Virus record (IMG/VR): IMGVR_UViG_3300037189_013517
Coordinates: 2,391-66,390 of that record
DNA length: 64,000 bases
Source: a virus
Reading direction: 5' to 3' (one strand)
In this document: piece by piece, positions 2,616 to 59,287 of the stretch
Numbering within the stretch: the first letter of the stretch is position 1
How the letters are laid out: each line of letters opens with the position of its first letter
Notes under the pieces: model-generated
What the model was told of the DNA's origin: nothing
Databases searched by the model: none
Seen by the model: the letters and a program-made list of their open reading frames with translations, nothing else
Translations under genes and position numbers: made by a program

Positions 2616-3899
2616 ATGTTTTTATCCGAGAATTATCAAAAGAAATGGGGTGCGATTCTTGATCATCCAGAACTCCCACAGATCAAAGATTCGTACAAGC
2701 GTGCCGTTACTGCAGTATTGTTAGAAAACCAGGAGAAGTCTTTACGTGAAGAGCGTCAAGCATTGTTTGAAACTCCTGCAAATAACATTAGTGCAACTGA
2801 TGGTATCCAAAAGTATGACCCAATTTTAATTGGTCTCGTACGTCGTGCAATGCCTAACCTAATGGCTTATGACATTTGCGGCGTTCAGCCAATGACAGGT
2901 CCTACAGGACTAATCTTCGCAATGCGTTCAATGTACGGTTCGGAGCGTAACAACACTTCGACACGTAAAGAGGCATTGTTCAACGAAGCCAACACTGGAT
3001 TTTCAGGTGGTTTCACTGACGGTACAGGCAATAATCCAGTATTTGGTACTTATAATACTGGTAACGCTATTCCAACAGCTTCGATGGAAGCTAAGGAAAA
3101 CTATGCAGAAATGTCTTTCTCGATCGATAAGACAACCGTTACTGCAAAGTCACGTGCGTTAAAAGCTGAGTACACAGTTGAATTGGCACAAGACTTAAAA
3201 GCAATTCATGGTCTTGATGCTGAGGCAGAATTGTCTAACATCTTATCGCAAGAGTTCATGTTTGAGATCAACCGTGAAATCGTCCGTACATTGTACAAAG
3301 TTGCAAAAGCAGGTTCTCCTGCAACAGCAACAGCAGGCGTATTTGACTTAGACGTTGATTCGAACGGTCGTTGGTCTGTAGAGCGTTTCAAGGGTCTATT
3401 GTTCAATATTGAACGTGACGCTAATCACATTGCTCAAGACACTCGTAGAGGAAAAGGTAACTTCATCGTTTGTTCAGCAGACGTTGCAAGTGCTTTAGCT
3501 ATGTCAGGTGTTTTAGATTATACACCTGCTCTATCGACAAACTTAAATGTTGATGACACAGGCAATACTTTTGCAGGCGTGTTGAATGGTAGATATCGTG
3601 TTTATATCGATCCATATTCAGCTAACCTCGGCGCATCTAACCAGTTCTACATGGTCGGCTACAAAGGCACAAGCCCATACGATGCAGGTATGTTCTATTG
3701 CCCATACGTTCCATTACAAATGGTTCGTGCAATCGATCCTAACAGCTTCCAGCCAAAGATCGGCTTCAAGACACGTTATGGTTTAATTGCTAACCCATAT
3801 GTAACATCAAGTGATTCTGTATCGGATTCAGATGCAGACGCATTTACAGCAGGACGTAACCAGTACTATCGTAAGACTAGAGTTATCAACCTAATGTAA
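2616..3899 (+). CDS. gp23: major capsid protein
   Basis: LVRRAMPNL.AYDICGVQPMTGPTGLIFAMR, SRALKAEYT.ELAQDLKAIHGLDAE, FQPKIGFKTRYG. Confidence 0.98.
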   Translation: MFLSENYQKKWGAILDHPELPQIKDSYKRAVTAVLLENQEKSLREERQALFETPANNISATDGIQKYDPILIGLVRRAMPNLMAYDICGVQPMTGPTGLIFAMRSMYGSERNNTSTRKEALFNEANTGFSGGFTDGTGNNPVFGTYNTGNAIPTASMEAKENYAEMSFSIDKTTVTAKSRALKAEYTVELAQDLKAIHGLDAEAELSNILSQEFMFEINREIVRTLYKVAKAGSPATATAGVFDLDVDSNGRWSVERFKGLLFNIERDANHIAQDTRRGKGNFIVCSADVASALAMSGVLDYTPALSTNLNVDDTGNTFAGVLNGRYRVYIDPYSANLGASNQFYMVGYKGTSPYDAGMFYCPYVPLQMVRAIDPNSFQPKIGFKTRYGLIANPYVTSSDSVSDSDADAFTAGRNQYYRKTRVINLM

Positions 3900-40451: not shown

Positions 40452-40897
40452 GTTCTAATTTATTTGGTACTCCCGTTGAAAAGGTAATTGAGGAACCGTA
40501 TAAGGCCCCCGCTATCTCGCCCTTCGATTTTATAAATGCTATACAATATACAAAAGACAAGCTTATTGTCGACGAATGGTCTGAAAAGCAGTATAATCCT
40601 TTTTTAATAAACAAGGGTCTTTCTTACGGGCATGATACAGTAATTCCTGCGAACGAAATGAATTCCCGTCCTCATTTGGACAAAATTCTTCAGTTTCACT
40701 TTCTCATAAATATTATTAGGCCTAGAAAAAGATTCAATAAATGGATTAAGGCTGAGAAGGTCGATGATTTGGAAGCAATAAAAGAATACTATGGCTATAG
40801 CACAGAGAAAGCCAAACAAATTCTGCCGCTTCTATCTGAGTCGAATATTGACGAAATAAGAAGAAGAATAAAAAAGGGCGGCAAGAATGAGTACTGA
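40448..40897 (+). CDS. gp62: clamp loader small subunit
   Basis: Y.PFLINKGLS, ANEMN, RKRFNKW.K, EYYGYS.EKA. Confidence 0.92.
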   Translation: MSSNLFGTPVEKVIEEPYKAPAISPFDFINAIQYTKDKLIVDEWSEKQYNPFLINKGLSYGHDTVIPANEMNSRPHLDKILQFHFLINIIRPRKRFNKWIKAEKVDDLEAIKEYYGYSTEKAKQILPLLSESNIDEIRRRIKKGGKNEY

Positions 40898-41321
40898 TAT
40901 TATTTCAATTGACTTCCCGGGATATAACCCACTGGAAGTAATCTTATCTGAACCCGATGATTTTTTAAAGGTTAGAGAAACTTTGACACGTATAGGTGTC
41001 GCTTCAAGAAAAGATAAAACACTATATCAGTCCTGCCATATTTTACATAAGCAGGGACGATATTTTATTGTTCATTTTAAAGAACTATTTGCATTAGATG
41101 GAAAAACTGCAGATCTTTCTGATAATGATTTACAAAGAAGAAATACGATTGCTAAATTACTAGTAGATTGGGGATTAGTTAAAATTAATGATCCTCATTT
41201 CTTTACTAATTATGCTCCTCTGTCTCAAATTAAAGTTATCTCTCATAAAGAGAAAGATGAATGGAAACTTGAAACAAAGTATAATATAGGCAAAAAGAAA
41301 ATGGGCAATTCGTATAAATAA
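40887..41321 (+). CDS. regA: translational repressor RegA
   Basis: DDFLKVRETLTRIGVAS, CHILHKQGRYFIVHFKELF. Confidence 0.97.
   Translation: MSTDIISIDFPGYNPLEVILSEPDDFLKVRETLTRIGVASRKDKTLYQSCHILHKQGRYFIVHFKELFALDGKTADLSDNDLQRRNTIAKLLVDWGLVKINDPHFFTNYAPLSQIKVISHKEKDEWKLETKYNIGKKKMGNSYK
41313..41320 (+). promoter_or_regulatory. T4-type late promoter upstream of pqqA
   Basis: TATAAATA overlapping the regA stop codon. Confidence 0.7.
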
Positions 41322-41408
41322 GTATATAGACCAGTAGTGATCTCAAGTTGAACCTGCAATTGCTCTTCAACGAACTGATCGTTTTTAGTAACCTCAAAGG
41401 AGACCATT

Positions 41409-41480
41409 ATGTGGACAAAACCAGAAGCAACTGACATGCGTTTCGGATTCGAAATCACCATGTACGTAGCAAACCGCTAA
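41409..41480 (+). CDS. pqqA: pyrroloquinoline quinone precursor peptide PqqA
   Basis: Translates to [23 protein letters not shown] (23 aa) with W-x-x-P and G-F-E-x-x-x-Y; SD AAGGAG 6 nt upstream; not in the ORF track. Confidence 0.92.
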
Positions 41481-41634
41481 TCCCAATCGGGATGGGAACT
41501 GGTTGGTAGGCCCAGTTAAAACTACCACTTCATAAGAAAGGCTATGCCTTATGGATAGTTGTTTCTTAGACCTCGAGGGGTATTTCGAGGAACGTAATCG
41601 TAATTTTTTAAACTCGCTTAATCAAGGAGCATAT

Positions 41635-41859
41635 ATGTTAGCATACGCAAACATGGCTATAGATGCCATTCAAAATTCTAAAAAAGCTTTTCTCACTACC
41701 TTTGTTAAAGAAGATTCTGTAAGAAAACCACTCGAACAATTTGTAGAATCACAGGGTTCTTTTGCAAGACAAATCGCAAAAACAAACTGGGATTTTGCTG
41801 AGGCGGTTATCAATACTTCCCACAAAGCATTCCTTAGTTCTAAAACTGATACTAAATAA
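41635..41859 (+). CDS. small amphipathic helical protein, phasin-like
   Basis: MLAYANMAIDAIQNSKKAFLTTFV...QFVESQ..FARQ; SD AAGGAG. Confidence 0.5.
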   Translation: MLAYANMAIDAIQNSKKAFLTTFVKEDSVRKPLEQFVESQGSFARQIAKTNWDFAEAVINTSHKAFLSSKTDTK

Positions 41860-41869
41860 GGAGAGAGAA

Positions 41870-42364
41870 ATGACTTTTGTACCTACTTTTTTCGGAAAAG
41901 ATTTTGACAAATTTTTTGTAGGATTTGACGATCAATTTAATCGTCTATCCAAAATACATGATGACATCACAAAAAATATTCCAAATTATCCCCCATATAA
42001 TATTAAGAAAACTGGCGACAATAACTATACAATTGAATTGGCAGTTGCAGGTTTTGCAAAACAGGATATTGAGATTGAATTTGCTGACGATAAGTTAATC
42101 GTTAAGGGCAGTACATCTGACGATGCAGATTCAGATTATTTGTTTAAAGGAATCGCTGGTCGTAACTTTACTCGTACCTTTGCATTGAACGATCAAATTG
42201 AAATTAAAGGTGCAGAACTATTTAATGGTATGCTTCAAATTGCTTTAGAAAGAATTATTCCTGAGCATAAGAAGCCGAAAAAAATTGAAGTAAAAGATAC
42301 AAGTGAAGTAACTCCAAAGAATTCTAAGAAAGAACTTTTGTTGGAGGATGTAAATGATAAATGA
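41870..42364 (+). CDS. small heat shock protein (Hsp20/IbpA family)
   Basis: NYPPYNIKK, IELAVAGF, GIAGRNF.RTF.L, NGMLQI.LE. Confidence 0.95.
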   Translation: MTFVPTFFGKDFDKFFVGFDDQFNRLSKIHDDITKNIPNYPPYNIKKTGDNNYTIELAVAGFAKQDIEIEFADDKLIVKGSTSDDADSDYLFKGIAGRNFTRTFALNDQIEIKGAELFNGMLQIALERIIPEHKKPKKIEVKDTSEVTPKNSKKELLLEDVNDK

Positions 42365-42518
42365 TCTCTTCGGCTGGGTTAAAGGGATCTTTGAACATAG
42401 TTATGCAACTGAATTAGAAAATTATATTATTCTGCATAATCCAAAAGACGGCGCAGATGTGGAAAGATTGACCGTGCAATATAATCAACGCATGGCAAGA
42501 GAAAACTTTAGCAATTAA
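42354..42518 (+). CDS. small protein, DUF3563-like
   Basis: 54-aa ORF MINDLFGWVKGIFE...ELENYI...PKDGADVERL; SD GGAGG; not in the ORF track. Confidence 0.55.
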   Translation: MINDLFGWVKGIFEHSYATELENYIILHNPKDGADVERLTVQYNQRMARENFSN

Positions 42519-54157: not shown

Positions 54158-54235
54158 GCAACGGTGGCAGAGAGGCCCAATGCAAGGGACTGCAAATCCC
54201 TAAAACCGTCAGTTCGAATCTGACCCGTTGCTCCA
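54158..54235 (+). tRNA. tRNA-Cys(GCA)
   Basis: GCAACGG/CCGTTGC acceptor, AGGGA-CTGCAAA-TCCCT, GTTCGAATC, CCA. Confidence 0.93.
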
Positions 54236-54254
54236 AATATATAAGTGAGAATGT

Positions 54255-54764
54255 GTGGAATTATTACAAGTACCTTTGCCCATAGTATGGATGAAATTAG
54301 AAGCGCATGCTGCGATAAAAGATAAATTATTAGATGCGATTGCAAAAGAAGACGCAACACGAGGTGAAGGTAATATTTCTAGAACAGATTGGTTTTTAAA
54401 TGGCGATAAAAGTTATTATTCTATATTGGAACCGCATCTACTTCCTATATTAGATAATCTTTTGTTTAAAGATTTTTATTACAATAAGTTTCAAGTTATT
54501 GCTTGTTGGTTTCAGCAATATGACACAAATGATGAACATGCTTGGCATACACATATTCCAAGCACATGGTCAGGAGTGTACTATGTCGAGCTTCCCGAGG
54601 ATGCTCCTAGGACAACATTCATCGGCCCGTTGGAAAAGGATAAATTAATCACACCCGATGTTAGTGAAGGTGATATAATAATATTCCCTTCAATGCTAAG
54701 ACATTGTTCTTTGCCGAATAAAAGTAAAAGTAGAAAAACAGTAATATCGTTTAATATAGAATAA
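54255..54764 (+). CDS. 2OG-Fe(II) oxygenase-like protein
   Basis: HAWHTH, WSGVYYV, EGDIIIFPS.L.H, R.VISFN. Confidence 0.8.
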   Translation: MELLQVPLPIVWMKLEAHAAIKDKLLDAIAKEDATRGEGNISRTDWFLNGDKSYYSILEPHLLPILDNLLFKDFYYNKFQVIACWFQQYDTNDEHAWHTHIPSTWSGVYYVELPEDAPRTTFIGPLEKDKLITPDVSEGDIIIFPSMLRHCSLPNKSKSRKTVISFNIE

Positions 54765-54839
54765 TCCGATGTAGCTCAGCGGTAGAGCAGAAGACTGTTA
54801 ATCTTTTGGTCGGTGGTTCGATCCCACCCGTCGGAGCCA
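54765..54839 (+). tRNA. tRNA-Asn(GTT)
   Basis: TCCGATG/CGTCGGA acceptor, CTGTTAA loop, GGTTCGATCC, CCA. Confidence 0.93.
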
Positions 54840-54845
54840 AATAAA

Positions 54846-54922
54846 CTGCCCGTAGCTCAGTCGGATAGAGCAACAGCCTTCTAAGCTGTGGGTCGGACGT
54901 TCGAATCGTCTCGGGCAGGCCA
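54846..54922 (+). tRNA. tRNA-Arg(TCT)
   Basis: CTGCCCG/CGGGCAG, ACAGC-CTTCTAA-GCTGT, GTTCGAATC, CCA. Confidence 0.94.
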
Positions 54923-54950
54923 TATTATTAAAGTGTTAATAAAATAATGC

Positions 54951-54979
54951 TTGACAAGAACACCAAAATGTGCTATAAT
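54951..54979 (+). promoter_or_regulatory. sigma70 consensus early promoter (near-duplicate of 52594)
   Basis: TTGACA-N17-TATAAT. Confidence 0.85.
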
Positions 54980-55005
54980 AATGATATAGTAAATAAGGAA
55001 AGCAC

Positions 55006-55152
55006 ATGAAAATCAAACGAAAGGTAAATGTTAAGCAAAGAAATCCACTGGTAGCTTTAGCATTATTTAGAAAAGCAGGTAAGCACCAGAAAACAAATAA
55101 AGCATTACGTAGAGAATTTAATGTAGGTTTATCTCAATGCAAGACATTTTAA
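55006..55152 (+). CDS. small basic early protein
   Basis: MKIKRKVNVKQRNPLVALALFRKAGKHQKTNKALRR... (48 aa); SD AAGGA; not in the ORF track. Confidence 0.6.
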   Translation: MKIKRKVNVKQRNPLVALALFRKAGKHQKTNKALRREFNVGLSQCKTF

Positions 55153-55772
55153 ACACTGTAGTAATAGATAATGTTCTGCCACAAGAGCTGGCTGACAAAA
55201 TAGAATCTATTTTTCGCGGTAATGAATTTCCATGGTATTATATTCCTGATGTTACGTTCCACGCAACAGAATATAAGGGAAATGATCGTGCAGGAGAAAC
55301 GTTTGGATTCTCGCATGAACTGTACCATTATAAAAAAGGCATCGTTACGAGCGATATAGTATTTGATATAATTAGAGATATCCCAGGACATGCTTTAGTA
55401 AAAAATAATCTTATAGAAGATCAAACAAAAGTAAATATAGACAATTATACTATAGCTACAATAAAATCTTTTTTTCAGCCACCCAACGGTAATACGAGAA
55501 GAGAGTATGACAATAAACACAATGATACAGATGTACCGCACTTAGTTTGTTTATACTATGTATTAGATGCGTCAGGTGATACTTTCTTTTTTGGCAAAGA
55601 AAAAGAAAGTGAGTTAGCATTTACAGTAACGCCAAAAAAGAACAGAGTGCTATTATTTGATGGTAGATATTATCATGCTAGCAGTTCTCCTTATAATGGA
55701 CCTAGAATAGTTATAAATTTTAATTTGTTTCATCACGATATTATGACAGCATTAGAGGAAGGAAGGCTATGA
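55137..55772 (+). CDS. 2OG-Fe(II) oxygenase-like protein
   Basis: HND, LYYV, GDT.FF, PKKNR..LFDG..YHAS, R.VINFN. Confidence 0.8.
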   Translation: MQDILNTVVIDNVLPQELADKIESIFRGNEFPWYYIPDVTFHATEYKGNDRAGETFGFSHELYHYKKGIVTSDIVFDIIRDIPGHALVKNNLIEDQTKVNIDNYTIATIKSFFQPPNGNTRREYDNKHNDTDVPHLVCLYYVLDASGDTFFFGKEKESELAFTVTPKKNRVLLFDGRYYHASSSPYNGPRIVINFNLFHHDIMTALEEGRL

Positions 55773-55963
55773 ATACTAAAATATGGGTTGACCCTCCGGC
55801 GGGTTGGAAATATGGTTTCCCTAAAGTCTGGGATAAAGAAGTCGACGGTGATTGCACAGAATGGATGTTAAAAAACGGGTATCCGCAAAAAGAGATTGAT
55901 GCTTGCGGAAATCATTTTCATGTACGTATGTGGAGTTATACAGATGAAGAATCTAAAGCGTAA
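55769..55963 (+). CDS. small hypothetical protein
   Basis: VDPPAGWKYGFPK...W...GYP motif. Confidence 0.7.
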   Translation: MNTKIWVDPPAGWKYGFPKVWDKEVDGDCTEWMLKNGYPQKEIDACGNHFHVRMWSYTDEESKA

Positions 55964-56192
55964 AGCTGCAGCACGCACTGCAATACAATTGGTATCTATT
56001 ACAGCCATTGCCTTAGCATTAGTTTGGTTTGAAACACTTATAACTGCGGAAATGGCAGGATGGATATTGATGTTTGGATTTCTAGGTTTTGCGATCTGGA
56101 TGGTGTATATGATTAATCTATCTCATTTTGAACATCTGCATCATAAAACAAAAGAACTTGAAGAAACGCAATCTAAGGGCGATTTAAAATAA
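55944..56192 (+). CDS. 2-TM membrane protein
   Basis: Two hydrophobic segments; start inferred at MKNLK. Confidence 0.55.
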   Translation: MKNLKRKAAARTAIQLVSITAIALALVWFETLITAEMAGWILMFGFLGFAIWMVYMINLSHFEHLHHKTKELEETQSKGDLK

Positions 56193-56243
56193 TAGGCAAA
56201 ATAATTGCCATATATAATTTTAAAATGCTCTTAAAGGATATGC

Positions 56244-56402
56244 ATGGACGCAAGAAAAATTTTAATAGAAGATAATACAGGTACAGATAAAAACGAATAT
56301 TGGGATATATTAGAAACTGAAGATGCCTTATTAGAAGCTCTTGAAAAGTTTACCCTTGAAATGCTTCAAAAAATTGAGGGTGAAGAAAATGAATCCCGCT
56401 AG
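56244..56402 (+). CDS. small acidic hypothetical protein
   Basis: MDARKILIEDN...EENESR (52 aa); SD AAGGA; stop codon lies inside tRNA-Trp. Confidence 0.5.
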   Translation: MDARKILIEDNTGTDKNEYWDILETEDALLEALEKFTLEMLQKIEGEENESR

Positions 56403-57300
56403 TGTTAACGGCAGCACGATGGTCTCCAAAACCACAAGACGCGGTTCGAATCCGTGGCGGGGTGCCAAGATTATTCTTGGACTTTTAATGTTTGTATCTA
56501 CCGGTGCATACCCACATAGTGTGCATCATAAACATAAGCATGCGCAGGTAAAAAAAGAAAAAAGAATTAAGGTTGCTAAAGCTGAAAAGACAAGTGTACT
56601 AGTTTTTAACAATACTAAAAGTACACATGAATATTCTAAGATGACTAATGTGGTTCGACCAATTGCAAGTGTTACTAAACTAATGACTGCAATGGTAGCA
56701 TTAAATTATGATAAGAATATGGAAAGGCATTTGAATATTAATTCTCCGGTAGGCGGAAGTTTACCTAAAAATAGATCTTATTCAAGATATGATTTACTAA
56801 ATGCTATGCTGGTTAAAAGTGATAATTCTGCAGCAGAAACTTTCTCTACAGATTATCCCGGAGGTCGAAAAGCTTTTTTAGATGAAATGAACCGACTTGC
56901 GTTTGAATATGGTATGATTAGTACTAACTTTGATGATCCAACTGGACTAAGTATTCAGAATACCTCTAGTGCGATAGATGTAGCGACAATGGTAGGAAAA
57001 GCGTCCGAATATGATTTAATACGAGAAATTAGTACAAAGAAACAAGTAGAAATAGATACAACGCATAAAAAGAAAACTAGAACAATAGTTTTGAATAATA
57101 CTAATAGGCCAGTTCTTTTTGAATTTGATAGTATTATAGTTAGCAAAACTGGATTTACAAATCCTGCAGGATATTGTTTGGCATTAGCAGTAGATAAAAA
57201 TAATCAAAAATATTCTGTAGTAATTTTAGGAGCAAGGAATAAATATGATAGAATACGTAAAGTAGAAGATGTTATGTATAATCATATTAATGCCAATTAG
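56389..57300 (+). CDS. peptidase S11 D-alanyl-D-alanine endo/carboxypeptidase (PBP7/PbpG-like)
   Basis: IASVTKLMTA (SxxK), KSDN (SxN), F.DPTGL, SKTGFT..AG.CL; start uncertain (56389 or 56419). Confidence 0.88.
   Translation: MNPASVNGSTMVSKTTRRGSNPWRGAKIILGLLMFVSTGAYPHSVHHKHKHAQVKKEKRIKVAKAEKTSVLVFNNTKSTHEYSKMTNVVRPIASVTKLMTAMVALNYDKNMERHLNINSPVGGSLPKNRSYSRYDLLNAMLVKSDNSAAETFSTDYPGGRKAFLDEMNRLAFEYGMISTNFDDPTGLSIQNTSSAIDVATMVGKASEYDLIREISTKKQVEIDTTHKKKTRTIVLNNTNRPVLFEFDSIIVSKTGFTNPAGYCLALAVDKNNQKYSVVILGARNKYDRIRKVEDVMYNHINAN
56393..56467 (+). tRNA. tRNA-Trp(CCA)
   Basis: ATCCCGC/GCGGGGT acceptor, TGGT-CTCCAAA-ACCA, CGCGG-TTCGAAT-CCGTG, G+CCA. Confidence 0.8.
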
Positions 57301-57308
57301 GATCTATA

Positions 57309-57779
57309 ATGAAAAAATTGAATGTTCAGGAAGTAAAAAGTTTTATCGAAGCACAGACTCCTGAAACTAAAATTTATTTAGGGGCAGATTCTGCTCGCTA
57401 CAAATATAAAGATAAATGGTATGCGGATTATACAATCGCAGTAGTTATACATATAGATGGATGTCATGGTTGTAAAATATTCGGCGAAGTGCAAACAGAA
57501 TTAGATTACGACGCCAAGAGTAGTAAACCATCTATGAGATTAATGAATGAAGTCTACAAGGTCGCAGAAGTATATCAGAAGCTTATAGATGTAATAGGTG
57601 ATAGACAAGTTGAAATTCATTTGGATATTAATCCAGATGAAAAACATAATAGTAGTATAGTGATTCAACAGGCAGTTGGGTATATCAAAGGTATGTGTAA
57701 TGTTGTACCTATGGTTAAACCAAGGGCATTTGCTGCAAGTTATGCAGCAGATAGATTCAAAGGACTGCTTGCAGCGTAA
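57309..57779 (+). CDS. RNase H-like YkuK/DUF458 family protein
   Basis: IYLGADS, EIHLDIN, KP.AFAASYAAD. Confidence 0.8.
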   Translation: MKKLNVQEVKSFIEAQTPETKIYLGADSARYKYKDKWYADYTIAVVIHIDGCHGCKIFGEVQTELDYDAKSSKPSMRLMNEVYKVAEVYQKLIDVIGDRQVEIHLDINPDEKHNSSIVIQQAVGYIKGMCNVVPMVKPRAFAASYAADRFKGLLAA

Positions 57780-57796
57780 TTTATAGAAAGGTAAAT

Positions 57797-58027
57797 ATGG
57801 ATATTCAAACGGCAGGTAATTTTTTAGGTGCATCCCTTCTATTTGGGGTAGGGATAGCCTTTATTGGAGTAGTTATTGTTTTCCTAAATAACATAATTTC
57901 TAAATATTGGAAACCGCTAAACTGGTTTAAGTTTATGAATTTTGTAGATGAAAAACAATATCCTAGAATGGAAGTAAAAGAGCCAACGTTAGGCGATCCT
58001 CCCGTGGATAAAAAATTAAAGAACTAA
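57797..58027 (+). CDS. small membrane protein
   Basis: Single TM helix, NN....YWKP, EPTL. Confidence 0.65.
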   Translation: MDIQTAGNFLGASLLFGVGIAFIGVVIVFLNNIISKYWKPLNWFKFMNFVDEKQYPRMEVKEPTLGDPPVDKKLKN

Positions 58028-58105
58028 ATGGGTTGATCGTTTCAATCTGATAGTCGGTTAGTCAGGTGTCCGATAACATCTGACACCATTTTTAAAGGAA
58101 AAGAT

Positions 58106-58255
58106 ATGGCAGAAGTACTAACAAATGATGCTAAAAGATGCAGTTGTGGTCGTAGCCCAACTGGATATTGTCTTGGTTGGCATGGTCTATCTGAAGAAGA
58201 ACTAAGAAAGAAACTTGAAGAAAACGCCAAGCAATTATTGCAAGAGGGCGATTAA
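58106..58255 (+). CDS. CDGSH-like iron-sulfur mini-protein
   Basis: CSCGRSPTGYCLGWH (49 aa); SD AAGGA; not in the ORF track. Confidence 0.7.
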   Translation: MAEVLTNDAKRCSCGRSPTGYCLGWHGLSEEELRKKLEENAKQLLQEGD

Positions 58256-58265
58256 TAGTATTAAC

Positions 58266-58339
58266 GCGGGATTAGTTTAATGGTAAAACGAAAGCCTTCC
58301 AAGCTCTAGTTATCAGTTCGATTCTGATATTCCGCTCCA
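58266..58339 (+). tRNA. tRNA-Gly(TCC)
   Basis: GCGGGAT/ATTCCGC, CTTCCAA loop, GTTCGATTC, T+CCA. Confidence 0.9.
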
Positions 58340-58344
58340 AGGTT

Positions 58345-58623
58345 ATGAAAAAAATGGATGATGAGCCATATGAGAAATGGGTTGATAAAGTTCGTCTTTA
58401 TGAATATGGAATAGCATTACAGCAAATCGCAAAAGGTGACAATCCTGAAGTTGTTTTAGATTCAATGTCTAAGCGAATTCAAAATAAACTTTTGCATCCT
58501 ATTATTGACGAAATACGAAAAGCAAATATATCAACGTATGATTCAGTAATCTCAAAGAAACATTACGAAGAAAATTATTTGAATAAAACCAACCGTGCGG
58601 CTGATCATGTTTTGGATGACTAA
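58345..58623 (+). CDS. stand-alone glutamyl-tRNA reductase (HemA) dimerisation-domain-like protein
   Basis: E...AL..IAKGDNPEVVL..MS.RI.NKLLHP resembles the proteobacterial HemA C-terminus. Confidence 0.65.
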   Translation: MKKMDDEPYEKWVDKVRLYEYGIALQQIAKGDNPEVVLDSMSKRIQNKLLHPIIDEIRKANISTYDSVISKKHYEENYLNKTNRAADHVLDD

Positions 58624-58626
58624 TTG

Positions 58627-58655
58627 TTGACAGTAATACTTTATTATTATATAAT
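58627..58655 (+). promoter_or_regulatory. sigma70 consensus promoter for tRNA-Leu
   Basis: TTGACA-N17-TATAAT. Confidence 0.85.
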
Positions 58656-58664
58656 AGTGTTAAT

Positions 58665-58751
58665 GCCCGGATGGTGGAATAGGTAGACACAACAGACTTA
58701 AAATCTGTCGCTCGCAAGAGCGTGCCGGTTCGATTCCGGCTTCGGGTACCA
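58665..58751 (+). tRNA. tRNA-Leu(TAA)
   Basis: GCCCGGA/TTCGGGT, ACAGA-CTTAAAA-TCTGT, long variable arm, CCA. Confidence 0.94.
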
Positions 58752-58769
58752 TTTTATTAAGGAGATGTT

Positions 58770-59204
58770 ATGAGTTTAAAAGGTACTAAAACTGCAGAAT
58801 GTTTAAAAGAAGCCTTTGCGGGTGAATCAATGGCAAATCGCCGTTATCTTTATTTCGCAAACGGTTGTGACATTGCAGGTGAAAATGATTTAGCAGCATT
58901 GTTTCGTTCTACAGCAGAAGGCGAAACAGGTCATGCACATGGTCATATGGAATATTTAATTGAAGGTGGTGCAGGCGAACCCGGTACAGGTCTCCCAGGC
59001 AAAACACCTCGCGAAATGTTGGAAGCAGCTATTCACGGTGAGACACATGAGTACACAGATATGTATCCCGGCATGGCAAAGACAGCACGTGACGAAGGCT
59101 TTGATGAAGTAGCAGATTGGTTTGAAACTTTAGCTAAGGCAGAACGATCACACGCTAATCGTTATCAGAAAGCTTTGGAAAAATACAACGCTGATAATAG
59201 TTAA
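58770..59204 (+). CDS. short rubrerythrin (no rubredoxin domain)
   Basis: [41 protein letters not shown]. Confidence 0.93.
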
Positions 59205-59210
59205 GTATGT

Positions 59211-59287
59211 GGGCCGGAAGCTTAAGTGGTATAAGCGTCCGACTCATAATCGGGTGATAGTGAGTTCGAGTCTCACCCGGCCCACCA
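59211..59287 (+). tRNA. tRNA with CAT anticodon, probably Ile2 (lysidine type)
   Basis: GGGCCGG/CCGGCCC; anticodon arm CGACTCATAATCG as in bacterial ileX; A+CCA. Confidence 0.85.

Follow-up and report, generated by a model that had tools for sequence, protein, structure and literature searches.

A pqqA gene in the replication module of a T4-like phage

The window analysed here is a stretch of 64,000 nt from an uncultured virus (IMG/VR record IMGVR_UViG_3300037189_013517), the source record of which is linear, 66,390 nt in length and ~37% complete according to CheckV. Its pqqA gene lies in the replication module of a T4-like phage, with the genes for the gp45 clamp, the gp44/gp62 clamp loader and RegA upstream, and a 74-aa ORF and the gene for Hsp20 downstream, all on the same strand. 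Finding gp45, gp44, gp62, RegA and Hsp20 around pqqA agrees with the phage context put forward in a preliminary description of the sequence. That this is a genuine phage genome, rather than host contamination, is evident from the T4-like flanks, from the same slot being occupied in ten T4-like loci, and from the occurrence of the gene in complete isolate genomes. Elsewhere in the window, positions 54158-59287 hold seven tRNA genes within 5 kb (Cys, Asn, Arg, Trp, Gly, Leu and Met). The features of the locus are as follows.

40887..41321, + strand: regA, translational repressor (PHROG 242 at 2.8e-61; Pfam PF01818, 156 bits); upstream neighbour, outside the cassette
41313..41320, + strand: TATAAATA, T4-late-type promoter-like octamer, recognised from its sequence; overlaps the regA stop codon at 41319-41321
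41328..41481, + strand: pqqA cassette (leader RNA, Shine-Dalgarno sequence and ORF), approximate; insertion relative to close pqqA-less relatives
41335..41382, + strand: conserved leader RNA motif (covariance model R1, 55.8 bits; covariation)
41397..41402, + strand: Shine-Dalgarno sequence AAGGAG, recognised from its sequence, 6 nt before the start codon
41409..41480, + strand: pqqA, 23 codons plus stop (PF08042, TIGR02107)
41482..41634, + strand: structured leader of the phasin-like ORF and hsp20 operon, kept in relatives with and without pqqA; not in the cassette
41635..41859, + strand: 74-aa phasin-like ORF, between pqqA and hsp20

The 72-nt ORF starting at the ATG at 41409 is a genuine PqqA-family gene, the match of its peptide to curated models being far beyond chance. 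Pfam PF08042 is matched at 41.5 bits (cut-off 21.1; E 1.2e-10; profile positions 1-19 of 19), and the NCBIfam equivalog TIGR02107 at 42.1 bits (cut-off 20; E 5.2e-11; positions 1-21 of 21), meaning both are matched end to end at about twice their curated cut-offs, upholding the identity first proposed for the gene. The Glu and Tyr of PqqA are the residues that become PQQ, and the Glu-x-x-x-Tyr pair described earlier is found in the translation as Glu15 and Tyr19 (E15-I-T-M-Y19), at the expected spacing. The strong Shine-Dalgarno sequence of that description is likewise in place, making this a short stand-alone ORF with its own translation signals; purine-rich boxes resembling Shine-Dalgarno sequences precede other phage pqqA copies, as judged by eye and uncounted. 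The window copy is the only match to the PqqA models in the whole 66,390-nt record. PHROGs contain no family for the 23-aa peptide, and its exact sequence is absent from a collection of 15 billion proteins, in which the commonest phage PqqA peptide is named 'MULTISPECIES PqqA [Methylophilaceae]'.

The gene is separate from the rest of the pathway. None of pqqB, pqqC, pqqD and pqqE was found in the 66-kb record (~37% complete), nor was a PQQ-dependent alcohol dehydrogenase. Queries with the NCBIfam-verified PqqB-E proteins of Methylophilus methylotrophus returned no tblastn matches in the window and 120 other viral loci (0.99 Mb), extending the earlier claim that the window lacks pqqB-E, whereas the same search found PqqB adjoining pqqA in 33 of 120 cellular loci. 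These genes were also absent from all five complete isolate phage genomes searched. The PqqC model was silent in every control genome, making tblastn the better control for this protein. Linkage to pqqBCDE is typical of many bacteria but is not demanded by the models, and most host copies resemble the window pqqA in lying away from these genes; in Methylophilus methylotrophus, the arrangement is aroG-pqqBCDE, with pqqA not upstream. Of the genomes searched for PqqE itself, all five from named methylotrophs gave a score above cut-off, as did 36 of the 42 from the genus carrying the leader motif described below. Multiple pqqA genes were reportedly described by Ge et al. in 2015. Host copies were dispersed over 2-9 places per genome in the five genomes inspected, and methylotrophs have been described as having 3-12 pqqA copies with a single pqqBCDE (PMC4109929).

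The late-promoter octamer noted in the preliminary description, TATAAATA, is present at 41313-41320. It occurs seven times in the window, against 13.75 copies expected, and is hence not enriched. However, it is found at the same position after regA in four relatives (L289, L292, L294 and L297), with the variant TAAATAAT occupying this position in three more (L288, L290 and L291), and one or the other is kept whether pqqA is present or absent. The octamer thus appears to be older than the pqqA insertion. As it predates the insertion, and its position is conserved, the comparison favours a real promoter, despite the lack of enrichment. A promoter and terminator scan of 40800-42500 found sigma-70-like sites to be no commoner than in shuffled sequences, and no intrinsic terminator.

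Downstream of pqqA, the leader at 41482-41634 is kept in ten relatives (L290:3440-3632, L297, L294, L292, L288, L291, L034, L025, L055 and L079). This hsp20-operon leader consists of CCCnnGGGAUGGGAA, variable hairpins, the UAUGCCUUCGGGGUA hairpin, a U-run, and AAACUCGCUUAA directly before the Shine-Dalgarno sequence. The last part of the L290 version has a sub-threshold resemblance to the ROSE_3 RNA thermometer (18 bits against a threshold of 43; E 0.17), a likeness that would suit a heat-shock gene. The ensuing 74-aa ORF matches neither Pfam nor PHROG families; its nearest ESM-Atlas clusters are all viral, with one automatically named 'Phasin family protein' (score 0.94), and it is not PQQ-related. 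Probably pqqA and the hsp20-operon leader share a transcript. Contigs of 151 nt from one freshwater metatranscriptome run match exactly over 41489-41639, and with two mismatches over 41867-42017; the sole contig of this run over pqqA has four mismatches, and comes from a relative. Such contigs are weak evidence of transcription, DNA carry-over into the library being possible. Stretches lacking cover in the RNA run, and the habitat labels of runs contributing small shares, were not counted as evidence.

Phage copies of pqqA and the selection acting on them

Phage pqqA is not confined to this locus. Searching GenBank phages with the peptide (tblastn) returned 12 records, nine of them cultured phages of Methylophilales or Methylophilaceae (MEP401, MEP402, Venkman, MEP301, P19250A and four Melnitz genomes), which span at least four unrelated genome types. 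One further record is an uncultured podovirus. The other two, both labelled 'Acinetobacter phage MD-2021a', were dropped, the one inspected having its match adjoining ppk and pqqBCDE, and therefore being bacterial DNA. Under this label, CAKLQF020000010.1 (L256) encodes ppk, pqqB, pqqC, pqqD and a radical-SAM (pqqE-like) protein, and resembles a bacterial chromosome.

The suggestion that gene callers overlook pqqA proved sound, given both the absence of the window peptide from the large protein collection and the state of the GenBank entries. All six phage records inspected (five methylophage isolates and one uncultured phage) lacked an annotation of the gene: four had no feature over it, and two an opposite-strand 'hypothetical protein'. 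These opposite-strand coding sequences run across pqqA at 3461-3556 in Melnitz-1 (L250; MZ577095.1), and at 2067-2195 in MW202481.1 (L255). Such calls are probably spurious, masking the real pqqA.

The IMG/VR database was scanned with a degenerate DNA pattern for W-x-K-P-x3-[DE]-x-R-x-G-x-E-[IV]-T-x-Y, carrying ~42 bits, for which far fewer than one chance match was expected. At least 120 contigs matched, and all 120 listed were ORFs of 23-25 codons, in which the Trp codon immediately follows an ATG and the stop comes four or five codons past the Tyr. This is an undercount, as the pattern misses MEP301 and P19250A, in which Lys4 is replaced by Ser or Thr.

The pattern of variation across 125 phage copies, 115 of them distinct at the nucleotide level, points to purifying selection on pqqA. 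Variability is three to five times higher at third codon positions (0.33) than at first (0.11) or second (0.07) positions, with pS of 0.66, pN of 0.13, and pN/pS of 0.20. Nine residues being fixed by the search pattern, pN/pS was recounted on the 12 free codons, giving 0.29; this figure was used in preference to that from the three core codons, at which pS exceeded one and was unstable, owing to the few synonymous sites in Phe and Met. The ratio is alike in phage (0.198) and host (0.195) copies. Identity is 77% in the gene, compared with 34% and 27% in the 60-nt flanks on either side. The synonymous-biased conservation for which the regA-hsp20 intervals of related phages were to be checked is accordingly seen.

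This codon structure bears directly on whether the peptide is made at all. The locus might instead be an untranslated DNA or RNA element that is conserved for another reason, such as an attachment-site copy of host pqqA, or the true gene might be on the opposite strand. Host pqqA is indeed a small, multi-copy and conserved target, and opposite-strand ORFs exist at 41243-41461 and 41394-41528, of the kind annotated in two GenBank records. Yet the substitutions follow the codon phase of the plus strand; the best host match agrees with the window gene at just 55 of 66 nt, and none of the 131 host pqqA genes sampled is identical to a phage copy; and the genome is T4-like, presumably lytic, with no integration module seen near pqqA. 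Such explanations are thus scarcely credible. GC3 is also lower in phage copies (0.34) than in host copies (0.48). Hence the codon-level selection, the lack of host-identical copies, and the lower GC3 together argue for translated genes that have long been resident in phages, rather than fresh contamination or attachment-site copies.

The relationships of the peptide suggest the likely host. Among the matches listed, the nearest peptides to the window PqqA are viral, sharing 21 of 22 residues (L025) and 20 of 22 residues (L114), and the nearest cellular peptides share 19 of 22 residues, in Methylovorus and Methylophilaceae records. When prokaryote species, each represented by a single genome, were searched with a narrower pattern for the phage-type peptide, at least 120 matches were obtained, of which those listed were almost all from Methylophilaceae or Methylophaga, plus Burkholderiales and Proteobacteria MAGs; the Methylophilaceae genera among them were Methylophilus, Methylotenera, Methylobacillus, Methylovorus, Novimethylophilus and Ca. 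Methylopumilus. We infer that the host of the window phage is a methylotroph of the Methylophilaceae type.

The orphan, multi-copy pqqA genes of Methylophilaceae are the closest known counterparts, being of the same family and length as the window copy and, like it, located apart from pqqBCDE; the window peptide matches them at 19 of 22 residues, and those of many other phages are identical. The leader motif is common to the phage gene and the hosts' tandem pqqA pair. The host copies nevertheless differ in being chromosomal, with the motif present once per genome and bearing an extra hairpin in the terminal loop of the leader, whereas the phage copy is single rather than tandem, and has synonymous sites that have diverged from those of the host.

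A covarying leader RNA upstream of pqqA

The leader at 41335-41382 forms a conserved RNA secondary structure backed by covariation. The preliminary description noted a hairpin-forming GTTGAA/TTCAAC leader, and this is present and conserved as the inner of two covarying helices, pairing 41347-41352 with 41366-41371. The outer helix pairs 41338-41342 with 41377-41381, and the two are separated by an internal loop of UCAA and GAACU. Ten phage leaders, including that of the window, share the order CTCAAG, one strand of a 5-6 bp stem, a loop, the other stem strand and GAnCTG, located 63-84 nt before the ATG, with six different stem sequences between them. In a MAFFT alignment of these ten, 59 of 60 cells of the inner helix are paired, and four of its six pairs show compensatory changes; none of 500 shuffles reached this pairing, and sliding one strand reduced it to 27-65%. 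RNAalifold added the outer helix of 5 bp, which likewise covaries. A natural variant from sequencing run X2 changes 41351 from A to G along with 41367 from T to C, thereby preserving the pair. No Rfam 15 family was found over 41200-41900 at E up to 10, with only chance-level similarities to ceN23-1 (E 3) and U7 (E 7.8).

A covariance model, R1, was built from the ten phage leaders and used to search 1.95 Mb, comprising the window, 120 viral loci, six isolate loci and 120 cellular loci. It found a single copy in the 64-kb window, and further copies directly upstream of pqqA in three viral loci (L017, L054 and L109), as well as on three MAG contigs. Weak matches at E of at least 0.19 (L112, L121, L186 and L346) were disregarded. 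Across the 80 closest RegA relatives of the window phage, the motif was found only in L289, the close relative with pqqA.

The MAGs bearing the motif belong to a genus with genomes of 0.7-1.4 Mb, of which 33 of 42 contained exactly one R1 match; this survey was preceded by a run of R1 with known carriers as controls. A search of 29 genomes from the family of G003, run without a positive control, found no match. Of 30 host loci examined, 27 have a tandem pqqA-pqqA pair whose first gene is preceded by the motif at a distance of 35-41 nt; contig ends truncate the remaining three. The two genes of these pairs, found in small-genome (0.7-1.4 Mb) methylotrophs (L257-L287; G034-G076), are ~200 nt apart, with Gln or Thr at position 4 of the first peptide (MWTQP or MWTTP), and MWT[KT]PAATEM at the start of the second. 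The leader motif precedes only the first gene of the pair. Aligning 44 sequences to R1 gave 94.9% of cells paired and nine of 11 pairs compensatory, against 24-54% pairing in slid controls, in an alignment that is fitted to the model and so biased towards its structure.

In the host loci, the motif is preceded at 7-10 nt by a -10-like box, and hence is probably at the start of the transcript. In minimum-energy folds, the invariant UCUC pairs with the GGAG of the Shine-Dalgarno sequence, or the 3' strand of the outer helix pairs with the start region, the window fold having a z-score of -1.06. In these models, the layout would be that of a translational switch. Most likely, the leader RNA controls how well the message is translated or how stable it is, and it would have come with pqqA from small-genome hosts of the Methylophilaceae type. 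A more speculative version of this idea, which we regard as distinctly doubtful, is that the ~50-nt leader is a translational ON switch sensing PQQ, a PQQ intermediate, or another signal of the methylotrophic state, with phages having taken gene and sensor together. Were this so, phage supply of the precursor would be tied to host demand, and the leader would give the PQQ pathway its first riboswitch, and one borne by phages.

A structured RNA beside pqqA is not itself without parallel, as a c-di-GMP riboswitch is annotated next to the pqqA gene of Methylophaga nitratireducenticrescens (PMC12530212, Table 4). The window leader is nevertheless unlike this element, being only ~50 nt long and having no Rfam match even at E up to 10, the c-di-GMP classes included. 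As a candidate regulatory element common to hosts and phages, it offers an entry to the poorly understood control of PQQ synthesis, and is the part of the locus with the most unexplored content.

Insertion of the cassette and its proposed role

Among the pqqA-bearing IMG/VR loci listed, 12 share gp45-gp44-gp62-regA with the window, their gp45 being 35-41% and RegA 64-72% identical. By-hand comparison of these 12 placed pqqA directly downstream of regA in ten, and after hsp20 in two. Because pqqA had itself been the criterion for choosing these loci, the comparison was extended to the 80 closest RegA relatives (68-92% identity). Only two of the 72 having at least 400 nt downstream of regA carry pqqA, as does just one (L289) of the 12 in which RegA is at least 78% identical. 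A whole-record search of the first 50 RegA relatives found PqqA in two; it was not found in other records of 64 to 181 kb, including those of 150 kb (92% complete) and 181 kb (100% complete). Hence the sporadic distribution of pqqA among the closest relatives indicates that it is dispensable for this phage lineage.

Comparison with relatives lacking pqqA suggests how the locus arose. These have, in order, the regA stop with TATAAATA or TAAATAAT, then CCCCGGGATGGGAA, the UAUGCCUUCGGGGUA hairpin, AAACTCGCTTAA and the Shine-Dalgarno sequence of the next gene. In L290, L292, L294 and L297, all pqqA-less, the CCCCGGGATGGGAA element follows within ~7 nt of the promoter-like box. In the window, where this element starts at 41482, and in L289, ~155 nt separate the two, comprising the leader, Shine-Dalgarno sequence and pqqA. 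With its boundaries judged by eye, the pqqA cassette thus appears as an insertion of ~155 nt relative to close relatives. A T4-like contig with 71% identical RegA (L324; G113:C1:32749-32811) has its pqqA ~20 kb from regA. This contig shows a second insertion site in the lineage.

Cassettes that come and go so readily might be passengers of little or no benefit, consisting of a tiny, highly expressed host gene and its leader that are easily gained and lost in hypervariable phage regions. The scarcity of pqqA in the nearest RegA relatives and in whole records, the clean insertion at an otherwise conserved site, and the variable position of the gene between phage types are all as this explanation would have it. 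There are four points to the contrary. Firstly, purifying selection on the phage copies equals that on the host copies. Secondly, GC3 has drifted to phage values. Thirdly, the ten T4-like loci keep pqqA in the same slot, although their gp45 proteins are only 35-41% identical. Fourthly, pqqA is found in all nine cultured methylophage records returned by tblastn. We therefore regard a mere passenger as unlikely. Rather, the comparisons indicate that the window copy is a true phage pqqA, a gene under selection and for the most part left unannotated, which was brought in as a small insertion along with a host-type leader RNA.

Such a gene would probably, though far from surely, work by supplying substrate to the PqqBCDE of the host. 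It would be transcribed with the hsp20 operon and translated, and the peptide would be bound by host PqqD, cross-linked between Glu15 and Tyr19 by host PqqE, and then matured to PQQ by a host protease, PqqB and PqqC. One PqqA is consumed for each PQQ made, while the enzymes are reused; hence a phage would need to carry only pqqA. Having shut off host transcription, it might thereby keep a PQQ-dependent methanol dehydrogenase supplied using just the consumable part of the pathway. Against the need for new PQQ during infection, the cofactor is itself reusable.

That infection has no demonstrated need for new PQQ is also the only point favouring a peptide that is not a PQQ precursor, and that would act instead as a decoy, sequestering PqqD or PqqE and so lowering PQQ synthesis by the host, or as a signal or regulator. 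Divergence at the reactive residues would then be expected, yet every position scored by the equivalog model is retained, including the Glu and Tyr, and, among the matches listed, the commonest phage peptide is the commonest host peptide, letter for letter. A decoy or regulator is hence very unlikely. Substrate supply is, on a reasonable balance, the most economical reading of the gene.

Neither viral pqqA nor the supply idea is new, both having been in print since 2020, as judged from the text of the report concerned (PMC7678222). Coutinho et al. 2020 (Microbiome 8:163, PMC7678222) described PqqA on the representative contig of VP_266, a Lake Baikal viral population. This was predicted to be a methylotroph virus, with PqqA read as an auxiliary metabolic gene supporting methanol dehydrogenase (PMC7678222). 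Both VP_266 and the window are therefore cases of pqqA on an uncultured virus, with a methylotroph host predicted for VP_266 (PMC7678222). However, VP_266 is represented by a single freshwater contig, discussed together with a viral methanol dehydrogenase, whereas the window is T4-like and has no such dehydrogenase in 66 kb. The main text of the VP_266 report contains no mention that we found of a leader RNA or of cultured isolates (PMC7678222). Virus-encoded genes listed for reservoir sediments in a 2026 paper include pqqA, pqqD and pqqE (PMC13188868). In the main text of the Melnitz paper (PMC9004378), PQQ appears only as a medium supplement, and that of the MEP40x paper (PMC10580990) has no pqq term; our literature search of main texts did not find the pqqA of methylophage isolates in print.

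An analogy may be drawn with the psbA gene of cyanophages, which encodes the D1 protein; this part of a host energy system is rapidly consumed, whereas the others are long-lived. In both cases the phage would carry only the component that is consumed, with the difference that the product of psbA is a complete functional protein, and that of pqqA a substrate peptide that cofactor synthesis destroys. PQQ-dependent methanol dehydrogenases (XoxF/Mxa) drive one-carbon oxidation in abundant planktonic methylotrophs, and a phage gene that topped up the sole consumable of PQQ synthesis would be a compact form of viral control over host energy metabolism. Phage pqqA is also a practical marker, being found almost only in phages of methylotroph hosts, yet so short, at 72 nt, as to evade ordinary gene callers.
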